Positions 1,898 through 18,605 of a stretch of DNA of 64,000 nt are shown piece after piece. The translations under genes and the position numbers were made by a program. The notes beneath the pieces were generated by a model. The model saw only the letters and a program-made list of their open reading frames with translations, ran no database searches and was not told where the DNA came from. The stretch's first letter is position 1, and every line of letters starts with the position of its first letter. This stretch comes from an uncultured Thermoplasmatales archaeon. GTDB lineage: Archaea > Thermoplasmatota > SW-10-69-26. The DNA lies in contig CAYNEI010000009.1 of NCBI GenBank assembly GCA_964396185.1, positions 3,057-67,056 on the forward strand, given 5' to 3'.

Positions 1898-3031
1898 TCA
1901 CTCACGAGGGAAGCTCAGCTTCTCGAAAACGCGCATAGCGTCCTTGCACGTGCCGTCGTACCCGATGGCCATGGGGCTGTAGTGGAGCCGTGCGGCTGGC
2001 AGCCCCGCCTCCTCGAGGGCCTTGAGGAGCGCGTTGCGCGGGGGTGGACCTGGCACGCTGAGCGCCTTGCTGGCCTGCTCGACATCCAGGTAGAACGGAC
2101 CCAGCGGGGCTTCTGCGATGAGCCGGTCGAGCAACCGCTGGGCCTCGACAGGCTCGGCGAGCTCGGCATCGTCGAGCTGGTCGCGCATCTGGGAGAGCAC
2201 CGTGGCGTCGTGGAGCGGACCCATGGCATACGGCCCCGTCGGCGCCCCCTGGCCGCACCGACACGCTTCTAGATCCCAGTGCTGACAGGCCCGGCAGAGC
2301 ACGACCTCCTCTAAGGCGCGCACGGCATCATCGGCCGCTGCTGCACCGTCCTGGATGCGAACGATGGCCCGGATGGCGTGCTGGTGGTGGTGCACGAGCA
2401 CAGGGCTGGCCGCCCGGTCGAAGCGAGCCGCCTCCCGGATCACCGCGCCCACCAGGTAGCGGCTGGCCGCCGCCTTCCAGCCAGGCGCATCCCGGGGTGG
2501 GGGCTCACCCATGTAGCGACGCCGGCCGGCCACGCGCTTGACGCCGTGAAGCGCGGTGGTGTCCGTGGCGGTCATGGCCAGCAGGCCTCCATCGCGCACA
2601 GCGCGCACCGCCAGCGAGAGGAACGGGACCGGTGAGCCGTACGGGTCCAGCTCCACGAAGGACCACGCGTTCGTTGACAAGAGCGCGTTGAGATCCCCTT
2701 GCCGCACCTCGACATCGAGCCCGGCAGCCTGGGCGCTGGCTTGCGCGACCTCCAGGGCCCGCGGCGAGCGGTCGTTGAGGGTGACTGCCCAGCCCGGTGC
2801 CTCGTTGGCCACACGCAGGCCACGGATCCCAGTGGCAGCCAACCCATCCAGGAAGCTCAGGGGCCGCGGGCCCTGGGTGACCTGAGCCAGCAGCACCGTG
2901 ATATCGCGCGTGAGCGCCATGGCTGGGTTGTAGAAGGCAGCGCTGGCCTTGCCGGGTCCCCGGTTCGGGCCGGCGTGGCGCTCGGGCACCTGGAAGGTGG
3001 TCGCCCCCTCGCTCACCTTGGCCAGGTCCAC
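1898..3031 (-). CDS. trm1: tRNA (guanine26-N2)-dimethyltransferase Trm1
   Basis: FYNPAMALTRD, LDGLAATGIRGLR, ELDPYGSPVPFL, and a Cys cluster (CRACQHW...CRCG) typical of archaeal Trm1. GTG start about 25 nt from an AT-rich box. Confidence 0.9.
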   Translation of the reverse strand: MDLAKVSEGATTFQVPERHAGPNRGPGKASAAFYNPAMALTRDITVLLAQVTQGPRPLSFLDGLAATGIRGLRVANEAPGWAVTLNDRSPRALEVAQASAQAAGLDVEVRQGDLNALLSTNAWSFVELDPYGSPVPFLSLAVRAVRDGGLLAMTATDTTALHGVKRVAGRRRYMGEPPPRDAPGWKAAASRYLVGAVIREAARFDRAASPVLVHHHQHAIRAIVRIQDGAAAADDAVRALEEVVLCRACQHWDLEACRCGQGAPTGPYAMGPLHDATVLSQMRDQLDDAELAEPVEAQRLLDRLIAEAPLGPFYLDVEQASKALSVPGPPPRNALLKALEEAGLPAARLHYSPMAIGYDGTCKDAMRVFEKLSFPRE

Positions 3032-4820: not shown

Positions 4821-5495
4821 CTAACGGCGCAACCCAGAGCGGTCGTCAGCGCCGCGAGCGCTTGCCTCGGACGCCCCGGCCTGAGCGCCGGGTTCCGAGA
4901 CGTCCGTCACCGTGGTGGCCAGGTGGCGCAACGCCGTGGTCTCCTGGCTCGTGTGCATGCCCGAGATGATGCGACCGACCGAGATGGAGCCCAACCGAGG
5001 CGCCATGCTCGAAAGCGCTTGGACCACCCGGTAGCAGCTGTTGAGCCCCTCGAGCAAGAGTAGGCTTGAGAGGGAGTCCACGAGCACGTAGTGCTCGGGC
5101 GCTCGCTCGATCAAGCCGGCCTGGGCCTCCGAGAGCCCGAGCAGCAAGCCATCAGGCCCGTCGGCCTCGACGAAGATCGTGGCCGGATCGGTGTGGGCCC
5201 ACCCGACGCGGTGGGCATGCGAGTCGACGTAGACGATCAGCCCATCCTGTTCGGCCTGCTGGACGTCCACCCCGTGGCGCTCCAGGGCAGCCCGGAACTG
5301 GGGCGTGGCCTGGTCGAGCAGCACCGCGATCACCGGCACCTCGCGCGAGATGGCATCGGCTGCGATGCGCTCGACAAGCGGAGCGCTCGGGCCGTGAGGC
5401 TCATCCAGGAACAGATGCAAGCCTGGTTGGCTCGGGACGACCCACGCAGCGTCCTCTGGAGGCACACCTACCAATGGCGTCTCGGGGCACTTCAA
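4821..5495 (-). CDS. hypothetical protein, possibly a degenerate RecA/KaiC-like fold (no Walker A seen)
   Basis: C-terminal ~200 aa of the 279-aa ORF resemble KaiC-type domains (HYVLVDSLSSLLLLEG, ISVGRIISGMH), but no GxxxxGK[ST]. The start is uncertain (TTG 5495, TTG 5474 or GTG 5465). The ORF upstream of 5553 overlaps vapC out of frame. Confidence 0.35.
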   Translation of the reverse strand: MKCPETPLVGVPPEDAAWVVPSQPGLHLFLDEPHGPSAPLVERIAADAISREVPVIAVLLDQATPQFRAALERHGVDVQQAEQDGLIVYVDSHAHRVGWAHTDPATIFVEADGPDGLLLGLSEAQAGLIERAPEHYVLVDSLSSLLLLEGLNSCYRVVQALSSMAPRLGSISVGRIISGMHTSQETTALRHLATTVTDVSEPGAQAGASEASARGADDRSGLRR

Positions 5496-5553
5496 GGGTG
5501 GGGGTCGGGGAGCAGGGGCCCAAGGGGAACAAGTGCACTCGAGCAGCGGCTCG

Positions 5554-5955
5554 TCACGGGACCTCGTGGATCCGCTCGATGCCCGCCTTGTCGAAGTCGT
5601 CGTCGAAGCTGACGATGGCATCCAAGCCCTCGCGCTCGACGACGAGGAGCGCGTAGGCATCCGAGAGGCTCAAGCTGCCATCGAACCTGACGACGAGTTC
5701 CATGCTCTCGTCCAGATCCTCGGCGGTGGGCATATGCAGGACCATGTCGTCGCGCATGGCCTCGTAGGCGTGGCGGGCAGCCGTACCGCCGCGTCTGGAA
5801 CCCACGTTGGCGACGACCTCGGCCACGGCCAGGGCGTGGACGTGGAACGGCCGGCGGGCGTCGACCTCGGGCTTGAGGGCTTGGACTGCAAGGTGCCAGG
5901 GGTCGCGTGGGTCTGCCAGCGCGATCATGAACGAGGCGTCGATGAAGACCGGCAT
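5554..5955 (-). CDS. vapC: PIN-domain ribonuclease toxin VapC
   Basis: MPVFIDASFMIAL (N-terminal acidic Asp), central E/D residues and C-terminal FDDDF, as in PIN domains. Immediately downstream of an AbrB-type antitoxin gene. Confidence 0.85.
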   Translation of the reverse strand: MPVFIDASFMIALADPRDPWHLAVQALKPEVDARRPFHVHALAVAEVVANVGSRRGGTAARHAYEAMRDDMVLHMPTAEDLDESMELVVRFDGSLSLSDAYALLVVEREGLDAIVSFDDDFDKAGIERIHEVP

Positions 5956-5980
5956 CTAGGAGGGCTCCTCGAGCGTTAGG

Positions 5981-6217
5981 CTAGGTCTCTCCGCGCTGAG
6001 CACGCTTCTTGGCCTCCACCGCATCGCCCCCGCCAGCCCCGGGCGCGATCCCGACGATGTCCCAGAGGGTCTTCTTCCGGCGGAAGCGCACCCGCACCTC
6101 GCCGTCCTCGGTCTCCTCCCAGACGACGAGGTCGCCGGGCTCGATGCCGAACTTGTGGCGCAGCTCGGCCGGCACCTGGGTCTGGTTCGCATCAGTGACC
6201 TTGGTGGACGTGGACAT
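5981..6217 (-). CDS. vapB: AbrB/SpoVT-family antitoxin VapB
   Basis: 78-aa product; VTDANQTQVPAELRHKFGIEPGDLVVWEE matches the swapped-hairpin AbrB/MazE motif. ATG at 6217. The 201-aa ORF in the track is an upstream read-through of non-coding DNA. Confidence 0.8.
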   Translation of the reverse strand: MSTSTKVTDANQTQVPAELRHKFGIEPGDLVVWEETEDGEVRVRFRRKKTLWDIVGIAPGAGGGDAVEAKKRAQRGET

Positions 6218-6249
6218 ACAATGTAGTTCTTCGTTTACAATGTATATAT
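6218..6249 (-). promoter_or_regulatory. vapBC promoter/operator: direct repeat ACAATGTA x2 plus TATATAT box
   Basis: ACAATGTA at 6218-6225 and 6237-6244, followed by the TATATAT tract. This is the only AT-rich patch upstream of vapB. Confidence 0.5.
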
Positions 6250-6438
6250 GGGTTGTCCTTGTAGAGAGCATAGTCGTGACATCGCGGTCCCGGTCCATCG
6301 CTCCCGCGTCGGCCTTCGGCGCTCCGCGGGGCGATGGCCGGGCGCATCCCGACCGATCGCACCGGCTCTCGCGGTTGGGCGGGCGCGCTCGGTCGGGGTG
6401 CTTCCACGCCGGCGCCGCGGTGTCGACCGGCCTGGAAG

Positions 6439-6475
6439 TGGGCCTAGGCGGATTCGAACCGCGAGGGTCCGAGCT
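6439..6475 (-). other. tRNA 3'-portion-like fragment (T-arm plus acceptor 3' strand plus discriminator), no 5' half
   Basis: TGGGCCTAGGCGGATTCGAACC (6439-6460, + strand) is identical to 6661-6682 inside tRNA-Met. Beyond the identity the fragment still forms a GCGG/CCGC T-stem. No GGGCCTA acceptor 5' strand was found nearby. Confidence 0.6.
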
Positions 6476-6660
6476 CGGCGCCGCTGTATCGACCGAGCTC
6501 GGGCTTCTCCCGAACCTGGTGCGGTTGGGGGGTTCGGGCTCGCCTTCGCGCCCGGCGAGACCGAGAAACGGGTGCGAAGGCCCCACGAGCCGGATCGATT
6601 GTAGCAGGCTCGTGAGGGTTCGAATCCGCCTCTCTGGACCTTGGTCGCGATCTGGGTCTA

Positions 6661-6734
6661 TGGGCCTAGGCGGATTCGAACCACCGACCGACGGGTTATG
6701 AGCCCGTCGCTCTACCAGGCTAAGCTATAGGCCC
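6661..6734 (-). tRNA. tRNA-Met (anticodon CAU; elongator type, or Ile2 if C34 is modified)
   Basis: Minus-strand read GGGCCTA-TA-GCTT-AGCCTGGTA-GAGC-G-ACGGG-CTCATAA-CCCGT-CGGTC-GGTGG-TTCGAAT-CCGCC-TAGGCCC-A folds as a 74-nt cloverleaf. The G1-C72 pair argues against an initiator. Confidence 0.9.
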
Positions 6735-9280: not shown

Positions 9281-9393
9281 CACCCCGGTACTCCAGCAGC
9301 GAGTTACAACGCGGCCCTGTCAGGGACACGCGGTCTCCGAACCGCAACGGCCTTGAACAGAACCCCGCGTTGGACCTCGGAGGATAACGCACT

Positions 9394-10317
9394 ATGGTGG
9401 CACGCAAGCTGATGGTGATTGCCCTGCTCGTACCGGCCTTCATGGCTTTGGTCGCCTCGCCGGCCTCAGCGCAGGGCGGCGGCTCTGTCCAAATCGACTG
9501 CTCGAACGGTCCCCAACAGATTCAACCTCTGGGGGCGCCTGGCCAATGGGACTGCACGGCCCAGATCCAGTTCCCGCGAGGCCTTGGCGACCCAACGATC
9601 TTCTACACGCTGACGCTGCGTGACCAAGATAGCCCCTCGTGGGCGAACGTCATCATCTCACCAGGCGCGATCTCGGGCCAGTGGGAAGGGGATGGCGAGA
9701 CCACGCAGACCCGGAACTTCAAGCTCTCCGTGGGCTTGACCGCCAACGCGCCGGCCTTCGAGCCAACACGCGTAACCATCGGCGGCGAGATGGACACCAG
9801 TGGCAGCCCACAGCAGTTCACTGTCGCCCAGACCCAGATCACGGTCACGCCGGGCTACTTCAACCTGTACAACGTACGCATGGACAAGAAGATCGGCCAG
9901 GGCGGTCCCCAGGACTCGGTCGACTACCCGATCCAGATCGACAACTTCAGCAACGGCCAGACCCGCTTCGAGTTCGAGCTCGTGAGCGATGAGGTCCCGA
10001 CAGGCTTCCAGCCCGTCGTGCCCGAGCCCGTGGTGCTGGAAAGCCAAGCTGGCGGCGGCGAGCAGACCCAGGGTCAAGTGACCTTCTCGGTCTACACGCC
10101 CTTCCAGAACGGCTACGTGAACGACGTTGGTGCGATCCAGCTCCGAGTCAAGAGCTTCTACGCGCCGGACACGTCGATCCAGGGTGCGACCTCCCAGGTC
10201 TCCACTCTGACCCAGGCCCGCGGGTTCTACGTCCCCGGTCCAGCCGCGCCGTTGCTCGTGCTCGGTGTGCTCGGTGCCGCCGTGGGCATGGCCAAGGTCC
10301 GCGGTCCCGACGAGTAG
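9394..10317 (+). CDS. secreted beta-sandwich (CARDB/NEW3-like) surface protein with C-terminal PG-anchor
   Basis: Signal peptide MVARKLMVIALLVPAFMALVASPASAQ. The C-terminus GFYVPGPAAPLLVLGVLGAAVGMAKVRG is a PGF-CTERM-like hydrophobic tail plus basic residues. Confidence 0.7.
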   Translation: MVARKLMVIALLVPAFMALVASPASAQGGGSVQIDCSNGPQQIQPLGAPGQWDCTAQIQFPRGLGDPTIFYTLTLRDQDSPSWANVIISPGAISGQWEGDGETTQTRNFKLSVGLTANAPAFEPTRVTIGGEMDTSGSPQQFTVAQTQITVTPGYFNLYNVRMDKKIGQGGPQDSVDYPIQIDNFSNGQTRFEFELVSDEVPTGFQPVVPEPVVLESQAGGGEQTQGQVTFSVYTPFQNGYVNDVGAIQLRVKSFYAPDTSIQGATSQVSTLTQARGFYVPGPAAPLLVLGVLGAAVGMAKVRGPDE

Positions 10318-17297: not shown

Positions 17298-17834
17298 ATG
17301 CGACGCTGCCTGGCTGGGTTGCTCGGCCTGCTGGTCCTCCTCTCCTTGTTCGCCCCCTCCACCGGGGCCCAGGAGGACGACGAGGTCCTGCGCACCCTGG
17401 AGGTGCAGCTCATGGACGAGGGCTGCCCAGAGGGCGCCGACCGGTTCTGCATCTCCCCTGCCGAGATCGAGCTGGAGGAAGGCCACACGCTCGTGCTTGA
17501 GATCACCAACGAAGGCCGGGTCAGCCACAATCTCACCTTCGCGCCTGGCACCCCAGCGCCCCTGGCAGACCACGGCATGAACGGGACCCTGGCACCCAAC
17601 GAGACCGTCGAGCTGCGCCTACCCTGGAGCGCCATCGAGGAGGCCTTCGAACAGAGCGGTCAGAGCGAGCTCGTGCTCCAGTGCGGCGTGGACGGGCACG
17701 CGACCTTGGGCGAGCGCATCGTGTTGACCGTGGCCGAGTCGATGCAGGGCGAGGAGCGCCCACAGCCCGGCCCGGGCGCGGTGCTCGCGCTGGCCGTGTT
17801 GATCGCTGTGGCGGCGCTTGTGCGCCGGCGATGA
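17298..17834 (+). CDS. cupredoxin-like (type 1 copper-like) protein with signal peptide and PG-type C-terminal anchor
   Basis: Signal peptide LLGLLVLLSLFAPSTGAQ. Ligand-like pattern SHNLTF ... QCGVDGHATL (His, Cys, His; Leu where Met is usual). The tail is PGPGAVLALAVLIAVAALVRRR. Confidence 0.65.
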   Translation: MRRCLAGLLGLLVLLSLFAPSTGAQEDDEVLRTLEVQLMDEGCPEGADRFCISPAEIELEEGHTLVLEITNEGRVSHNLTFAPGTPAPLADHGMNGTLAPNETVELRLPWSAIEEAFEQSGQSELVLQCGVDGHATLGERIVLTVAESMQGEERPQPGPGAVLALAVLIAVAALVRRR

Positions 17835-17849
17835 GCCGCGCCGGCAAGT

Positions 17850-18605
17850 TCAGGGCGGGCCGAGCTGGTCAGCGAAGCCCGCTGCAGCCTTGGCCGCTGC
17901 CTCAGGGAAGCTGCCCTCGGCCTGGCTGATGCCCCGGGAGACGTTGACCAGGAAGGGGCCGCCGCTGGCTGCCTGGGCGGCCAGGTCTGCATGGCCACCC
18001 TGGGCGCCGATCCCGGGCAGAAGCAGCGGGGCGTCGCCTGCGCTCTGCCGGACACCGCGCACCACTTCTGGGTCGTTGCCGGGAGCCACGAAGCCAGCAC
18101 CACGCACAGCGAAGAGCTGGATGACGCGCCCAGCTACGCCGCCCTGGATCTTGACCGCGCTCGGGTTGGTCGTGCGTGCGAGCACGAAGACGCCGAGCCC
18201 CTCGTCGAGGAAGGGATCGAGCACGTCTGTGCCCATGTAGGGGTTGAGCGTGACCGCGTCAGCGCCGACGACCTCGCGCGCGAACCGCGCGTACGCGGTG
18301 GCGGTGGAGCCGATGTCGGCGAACTTGGCATCAAGCAGGGTGAGCGCTCCAGTGCGCTTGGCAGCGTCCACCGTGGCTTCCAGGGCCTCGATGCCGGGGG
18401 GACCCATTTGGAGGAAGAAGGCGAGGTTCGGCTTGAAGGCCGCCGCGTGCTCGCTGGTGGCCTCCACCAGGTCCAGGCACCACTGTTGGAAACCTGCTGG
18501 CTCGTCGTACTCGGCCGGGAAGGCCTCCGGGCGGGGGTCGATGCCGACGCAGAGGTGACCGCGCTCGGCGTTGACCCGCTTGACATCCTCGCTCAGGGAG
18601 ACCAA
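17850..18605 (-). CDS. pyrF: orotidine 5'-phosphate decarboxylase (type 2)
   Basis: CVGIDP, LLDAKFADIGST (DxKxxDI), LPGIGAQGG, VNVSRGI. TTG start 10 nt after the aIF5A stop. Confidence 0.85.
   Translation of the reverse strand: MVSLSEDVKRVNAERGHLCVGIDPRPEAFPAEYDEPAGFQQWCLDLVEATSEHAAAFKPNLAFFLQMGPPGIEALEATVDAAKRTGALTLLDAKFADIGSTATAYARFAREVVGADAVTLNPYMGTDVLDPFLDEGLGVFVLARTTNPSAVKIQGGVAGRVIQLFAVRGAGFVAPGNDPEVVRGVRQSAGDAPLLLPGIGAQGGHADLAAQAASGGPFLVNVSRGISQAEGSFPEAAAKAAAGFADQLGPP

Follow-up and report, generated by a model that had tools for sequence, protein, structure and literature searches.

A duplicated tRNA-Met tail and its hairpins as a probable unit of a lineage-specific hairpin-module family at gene 3′ flanks in soil Thermoplasmata

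The locus described here lies within a 64,000-nucleotide stretch of DNA, hereafter the window, from the 3.17-Mb assembly of an uncultured soil Thermoplasmata archaeon (G000), a MAG that is 89.5% complete and has a G+C content of 67%. The features of interest all lie on the minus strand and begin with an intact tRNA-Met(CAT) gene at 6661..6734, recognized by ARAGORN and by Rfam model RF00005 (69.6 bits). The last 22 nt of this tRNA (6661-6682) are the first copy of a sequence that we call X. Read along the tRNA strand, the tRNA ending in X is followed by a spacer, a partial inverted copy of X (X′), four hairpins (h1-h4), the second copy of X and a module A made up of hairpins hp1, hp2 and hp3, after which comes the next gene.

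The spacer between the tRNA end and X′ is 29 nt long (6632..6660) and holds a weak GACC/GGTC stem; it was delimited by sequence comparison. X′ (6617..6631), identified by repeat search and folding, repeats the first 15 nt of X (the T-loop and the T-stem 3′ strand) exactly but in inverted orientation. Hairpins h1 (6582-6616, short and hp2-like) and h2 (6542-6581) together fill 6542..6616 and were defined from the predicted fold and from strain contigs, while h3 (6509-6538, loop CCCCAACCGCACCA, hp2-like) and h4 (6469-6502, loop TCGATACAGCGGCG, hp1-like) fill 6469..6538 and were assigned from the fold and from comparison of their loops with the module A alignment. X copy 2 (6439..6460) is an exact 22-nt direct copy running from the T-loop to the discriminator, with a 4-bp mimic of the T-stem before it. 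Next comes module A hairpin hp1 (6401..6438), with the stem CTTCCA..TGGAAG and the loop GGTCGACACCGCGGCG, supported by the module alignment and by 70% blastn identity to the tRNA-Met trailer of a related genome (G005), and then hairpins hp2 and hp3 (6288..6402; arms 6344-6366/6379-6401). Directly after the array, as context outside the element, come an AT-rich promoter and the genes recognized by Pfam as vapB (AbrB/MazE-type, 5956-6192) and vapC (PIN, 5554-5955), which together span 5554..6254. A Trm1 gene is found at window positions 1898-3031.

An earlier note on this DNA had reported the 22-nt duplication, and our searches bear it out: TGGGCCTAGGCGGATTCGAACC occurs at 6439-6460 and at 6661-6682, and these two copies are the only ones in the whole 3.17-Mb assembly. 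Allowing up to 3 mismatches reveals no further copy in the window, where shuffled sequences lead one to expect 0. The inverted 15-mer GGTTCGAATCCGCCT is likewise present at 6617-6631, which makes 3 copies in all against 0.02 expected, and the T-arm-like GCGG-TTCGAAT-CCGC is there together with the acceptor 3′ strand and the discriminator A. The count of four hairpins also stands; the description of them as perfect was slightly generous, as h1 contains one G-U pair. X and X′ have a common boundary in the window, at GG|TTCGAA, and X′ is able to pair with either copy of X. In the predicted minus-strand fold of the 222 nt behind the tRNA, X′ pairs with the second X over 15 bp and so encloses h1-h4, with an MFE of -109.7 kcal/mol and a z-score against shuffled sequences of -4.3 (-6.1 for the opposite strand). 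Contigs from three soil metagenome runs, assembled independently, showed 0 differences across the region, demonstrating that the array is not an assembly artefact. The loops of the array match those of hp1 and hp2 in the forward direction (h1 and h3 being hp2-type and h4 hp1-type). Because these hairpins run forward relative to module A, the interval from X′ to X is not a simple inverted copy of the trailer, a candidate that the inverted-triplication test thus ruled out for this interval.

What the earlier note missed is that the interval belongs to a genome-wide, lineage-specific family of modules. Module A consists of three conserved hairpins found behind about 15 tRNA genes and at least four protein genes. 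The first, hp1, begins at or within the tRNA end and has a loop near TTCTCCGATAGCGCA; hp2 has a stem of 15-18 bp; and hp3 is conserved towards its apex, which reads GACCCCCGA(U)AGGGCGGAG. In an alignment of ten module A copies, compensatory changes were seen in 25 of 37 predicted pairs and the loops were conserved. We built a covariance model, R1, from hp2 and hp3, and this model finds about 20 distinct loci in the genome, window positions 6288-6402 among them. The sequence that follows the second X, at 6438-6288, can therefore be called a regular module A, given its R1 match at 62.8 bits (E 7.6e-10), and it shares 70% identity with what stands right behind tRNA-Met in G005.

Wherever the upstream gene is known, the module is oriented with it (19/19 loci). 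G-U pairs outnumber A-C pairs in the sense-strand stems by 28 to 14 across alignment rows that are related to one another, and this excess hints weakly at selection at the RNA level. TTTT or TTCTCC occurs right behind several of the tRNAs, within the first hairpin; termination of transcription at these motifs would leave most of the module out of the RNA. The 10-mer CCGATAGCGC from the hp1 loop was tried as a marker of the family and gave 11 matches, 6 of them behind tRNAs; it was dropped since at least one of the others falls in the rRNA region of contig C20 and several are probably due to chance.

Known RNA families do not account for these structures. At the Rfam gathering score, the tRNA alone matches in the window, and a covariance search of 17 module loci at E up to 1 returned only tRNAs and chance matches to miRNA-type hairpins, so that the known family raised as a possibility in the earlier note did not emerge. 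A described RNA family, a group II intron and a small ribozyme were each set aside for want of an Rfam match. Full-text literature searches found no description of archaeal arrays of this kind, and the repeat family is apparently new to description. On contig C18, a module-type hairpin (loop TTCCCAACTGCGTA) and other module hairpins are immediately preceded by about 300 nt (L085, 3820-4130) of G+C-rich, non-coding-looking sequence without an Rfam match; this stretch is possibly an RNA gene missed in annotation, and one likewise equipped with a module.

Copying of a gene's own end is not confined to tRNA-Met. We scanned all 42 tRNAs that ARAGORN identifies in the assembly for exact 13-mers of their own tails within 700 nt downstream, and found direct cognate copies behind 7/42 and inverted copies behind 9/42. 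The same 13-mer test with non-cognate tails gave 3 direct and 7 inverted copies among 1584 pairs. Inverted copies of the gene's own tail lie 18-30 nt downstream of Leu-CAA, Leu-GAG, Leu-CAG, Gln-CTG, Gly-TCC, Arg-CCT and a second Met, and at 86 nt behind Ile-GAT. Direct copies lie 55-600 nt downstream of Ser-GCT (three copies), Pro-TGG (two), Lys-CTT (two), Gln, Ser-TGA and Ala-TGC, the last of these in an rRNA operon spacer (C20, 184-330) where tRNA-Ala(TGC) has a 14-nt direct tail copy 55 nt downstream, before the 23S rRNA. The full order X, loop, X′, payload, X recurs behind tRNA-Arg, Ser, Gln, Pro and Lys and behind an aaRS gene. Folding energies over the 200 nt 3′ of tRNAs average -0.479 kcal/mol per nt, as against -0.41 upstream. 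Behind tRNA-Thr(CGT) (C17, ~17300-18050, L037), near-identical tandem units of about 130 nt, each with hp1 and further hairpins, precede a regular module A; these units exclude the tRNA end, indicating that the boundaries of tandem duplication vary by locus.

Protein genes show the same arrangement. Copies of R1 follow genes for COX3, a class II aaRS and an AMP-binding enzyme as well as one further ORF, with the stop codon 13-27 nt upstream of hp2. In the first hairpin at these genes, the final 10-18 nt of the coding sequence pair with an inverted copy of themselves, so that the stop codon is enclosed. At the class II aaRS gene (C27, ~9330-9620), the stop-codon hairpin has the stem TTCCCGAGGGACCGCA / TGCGGTCCCTCGGGAA and is followed by hp2 and hp3, after which comes an exact 14-nt direct copy of the end of the coding sequence (GACCGCACGCGCCT). 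This succession of direct, inverted and direct copies is the X / X′ / X layout of the tRNA-Met locus.

The family has a narrow distribution. R1 matched 4 of 61 genomes, all of them in family f1 (genera g1, g3 and g4), and found nothing in the 55 genomes that belong to other families within the class and phylum. The sister genome G001 (genus g2) has no modules, and 0/31 of its tRNAs have cognate direct or inverted copies; lacking both, it indicates that modules and end copies go together. At the tRNA-Met locus of G005 and G002 the order is tRNA-A-X′-B-X-A-X′, and in G005 two copies that start 287 nt apart share 234 nt at 99% identity. The part of module A at 6401-6438 in the window is orthologous to the sequence right behind tRNA-Met in G005. 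The 29-nt spacer resembles the end of module A in relatives (GACC.GATCGCG), and from this likeness the first module A was probably deleted in the present lineage, with the spacer as its probable remnant. At the orthologous tRNA-Met of G003, which belongs to the same genus as G005, and at that of G001, the array is absent and the flanks differ.

Variation is also seen between close strains. The tRNA, X′, X and module A are retained in contigs of related strains (~90-95% identical), whose differences fall within the interval: in runs X5 and X6, positions 6542-6617 (h1 and h2, 76 nt) are cleanly missing, and in another run a single 39-nt hairpin stands between X′ and X. Since strains differ by whole hairpins, the interior of the interval is modular and dispensable. 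Runs of N interrupt the tRNA-Met array of G002 (L007, 1597-1625) and the array on C18, and copy numbers from MAGs are to be read as lower bounds, because arrays break or gap short-read assemblies.

The earlier note had called for a synteny comparison of this tRNA locus, and the sister genome provides one: in G001, the homologue of window positions 4710-3839 lies about 115 nt past tRNA-Met. In our genome, a KaiC-like gene without an obvious P-loop and vapBC (window 4821-6254) stand between the array and the genes syntenic with G001. As G001 has none of them in between, the array, vapBC and the KaiC-like gene amount to about 1.9 kb of extra sequence here. A search across the window for degenerate copies of X that might bound vapBC as a cassette gave only chance-level matches at 3 mismatches.

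The earlier note had offered three explanations for the second tail copy, namely att-site scars, half of a split or disrupted tRNA, and a structured RNA with a tRNA tail, none of which holds as stated. In its classical form, the att scar reading takes the two 22-mers as attL and attR cores of a tyrosine-integrase element that entered the T-loop of tRNA-Met and decayed to 200 bp. It has in its favor that the direct repeat extends from the T-loop as far as the tRNA end, as is usual for att sites of the T-loop class, that the tRNA-Met flank is variable, with some 1.9 kb more than in G001, and that a real integrase adjoins tRNA-Val(CAC) elsewhere in the genome. However, the extra genes lie outside the repeat pair rather than between its copies, the content bounded by the repeats consists of the same hairpin types as the genome-wide modules, and the pattern recurs at more than 15 loci, ends of protein genes included. 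No integrase is encoded on the contig, nor did Pfam searches of the neighbouring ORFs reveal an integrase or a remnant of one between or beside the repeats. Gene ends are copied behind many tRNAs and protein genes, and strain variants differ inside the interval, where they change 76 nt or replace sequence within the unit; occupied and empty sites differing precisely at the repeat were not seen. We therefore consider this reading very improbable. The genome has two PF00589 tyrosine recombinases, a Xer-like one on C12 and one on C16 (44504-45214, 39 bits), the latter 127 nt from the 3′ end of tRNA-Val(CAC) with no hairpin module there; the C16 locus is a candidate for a genuine integrative element and a useful internal contrast. 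The second 22-mer has next to no chance of being a split-tRNA 3′ half or a tRNA pseudogene. The copy does carry a T-arm-like hairpin, the acceptor 3′ strand and a discriminator, but its likeness to the tRNA ends 2 nt before the T-loop, an intact tRNA-Met stands directly upstream and the genome has three CAT tRNAs. A search of the 89.5%-complete assembly for a matching, orphan 5′ half (up to 8 mismatches in 37 nt) found none, and no second tRNA-like unit was recognized by ARAGORN or, at E up to 1, by the Rfam tRNA model. The primer-binding site of a tRNA-primed retroelement was rejected as well: X′ is continued by the complement of the genomic trailer rather than by TGG, the complement of CCA. 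The third of these explanations comes nearest in form, as the interval is a structured module ending in the tail of the tRNA. A dedicated trailer RNA of this sort would be co-transcribed with tRNA-Met, with the second X and its T-arm mimic serving as a repeated 3′ processing signal of tRNA type, through which a stable, hairpin-rich RNA some 220 nt long is released; in another version, cleavage or termination would be directed by pairing of X′ with the end of the transcript. Orientation with the upstream gene at 19/19 loci, covarying stems with conserved loops across about 3-4 genera and the preponderance of G-U over A-C on the sense strand (28 vs 14) speak for it, and some E. coli tRNA-linked repeats (TLRs) are processed small RNAs in which the repeated end acts as a processing signal (PMC8144298). 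Yet close strains can do without interior hairpins of the h1-h4 set, the array is missing altogether from the orthologous locus in a congener of G005 and in the sister genus, a transcribed X′ would compete with correct folding of the tRNA, and the interval folds better on the antisense strand than on the sense strand; on balance we think such an RNA unlikely.

Another possibility is that the unit is a mobile hairpin cassette, that is, an integrated small non-coding circle, possibly single-stranded, whose folded X-loop-X′ attachment site mimics the double-stranded end of the target gene. A single exchange of strands with the chromosome and subsequent replication would yield X-loop-X′-payload-X, in a manner comparable to integron attC and CTX-phage attP. 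The window and the flanks of tRNA-Arg, Ser, Gln, Pro and Lys and of the aaRS gene show precisely the order that such an integration predicts, X and X′ share their boundary at GG|TTCGAA, the conserved loops suggest recognition by a protein, and some genera have both modules and cognate copies where G001 has neither, as would be the case for an invading element. Against this, at least 25 different target sequences confront two tyrosine recombinases and no Y1 transposase, a stem that matches a new target must first be copied from that target, strains differ by whole-hairpin indels within units rather than by gain or loss of units at X, and no circular or empty-site form was seen in the contigs. 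With so many targets, so few recombinases and variants that are not bounded by X, the folded-site cassette is a doubtful proposition. We are equally hesitant about its wider form, in which a non-autonomous archaeal insertion element would dock at the 3′ ends of tRNA and protein genes in a reaction driven by a loop-reading, trans-acting protein, and would restore the end of the gene as it integrates.

Comparison with known systems helps to place the array. The closest known kind is the TLRs of E. coli (Egan & Landy 1978 and Rudd 1999, as cited in PMC8144298), which end in 18-19 bp of the end of the upstream tRNA or rRNA gene and number 22 copies at ten loci, with unknown function (PMC8144298); the array may be seen as an archaeal counterpart in kind. 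As in TLRs, the archaeal units, that of the window included, lie directly behind a gene in the same orientation, are often tandem and have as their 3′ end the end of the upstream gene, matched here over 22/22 nt as opposed to 18-19 bp in E. coli. The archaeal units differ from TLRs in their host and share no sequence relation with them, and they add an inverted copy of the gene end, are built from shared long perfect hairpins with conserved loops and also stand behind protein genes. Attachment sites of the T-loop class resemble the locus in that a repeat runs from the T-loop to the tRNA end within a variable region beside a tRNA; they differ in that the archaeal locus has no integrase and no cargo between the repeats, and in that many genes, protein-gene ends among them, are affected in a genome with two tyrosine recombinases.

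REP, BIME and REPIN sequences are likewise dispersed intergenic palindromic units behind genes (about 20 loci by R1 here), with a conserved motif, covarying stems and a lineage-specific distribution. In contrast to them, every archaeal unit points the same way as its upstream gene instead of alternating in orientation, and the units include copies of the flanking gene end. The RAYT/Y1 transposase domain PF01797 was found in 0/6 genomes of family f1, while control genomes matched. With integron attC and CTX-phage attP the array shares an inverted repeat that can fold into a target-mimicking hairpin, and the integrated layout fits; here, however, there is no integron integrase and there are no gene cassettes (no ORF lies between the X copies), and the targets vary by locus. 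Finally, template-switch hairpins and small inverted triplications (PMC8794818, PMC13100816, PMC13334657) also present direct-inverted-direct copies, perfect stems and apparent multi-base compensatory changes, but they represent a class of mutation rather than a family of elements, and on their own leave the loops conserved at about 20 loci unexplained.

These observations define a family of modules that are structured, oriented with the upstream gene, furnished with copies of that gene's own end, confined to three genera and polymorphic by whole hairpins. We favor the reading that the interval between the tRNA-Met tail copies is one unit of this lineage-specific family at gene 3′ flanks, TLR-like in kind and remodelled by template switching and slippage, and we put its probability at roughly 0.55. 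Template switching is reported both to make and maintain perfect hairpins (PMC8794818) and to expand the arms of inverted repeats (PMC13100816). Under the favored reading, arrays would arise and change in place through replication errors at gene ends: foldback template switching would produce the inverted copy of the gene end and keep the stems perfect, slippage or unequal exchange between units would produce the direct copies and the tandem stacks, and copying between loci would spread the common hairpins, with no part for an integrase. Template switching in place does not easily explain why the same hp2 and hp3 stand at about 20 loci, and we infer that copying between loci or mobility would be needed. 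Conservation of the loops, most of all of GACCCCCGA(U)AGGGCGGAG in hp3, implies some trans-acting recognition factor, which would presumably read them. Judging from sequence and position, the strict placement of the modules at gene ends, always in one orientation, suggests that they are retained for the structure they give to 3′ ends, perhaps a barrier, an insulator or a processing signal that sets a strongly transcribed gene apart from the next one, and a role in 3′-end formation is possible.

For annotators, the locus carries a warning against reading every short duplication of a tRNA end as the footprint of an integrase, for such duplications are not always that. More broadly, the principle embodied by TLRs, which have been familiar from E. 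coli since 1978 with their origin and function unexplained, appears here in a much richer form, and in a system that is defined and countable, with a covariance model, lineages that have or lack the modules and natural variants. Three questions thereby become addressable, namely whether such arrays are by-products of replication trouble at the ends of strongly transcribed genes, mobile hairpin cassettes or signals for the formation of 3′ ends, the last of these being a question that concerns GC-rich archaea without T-rich terminators.
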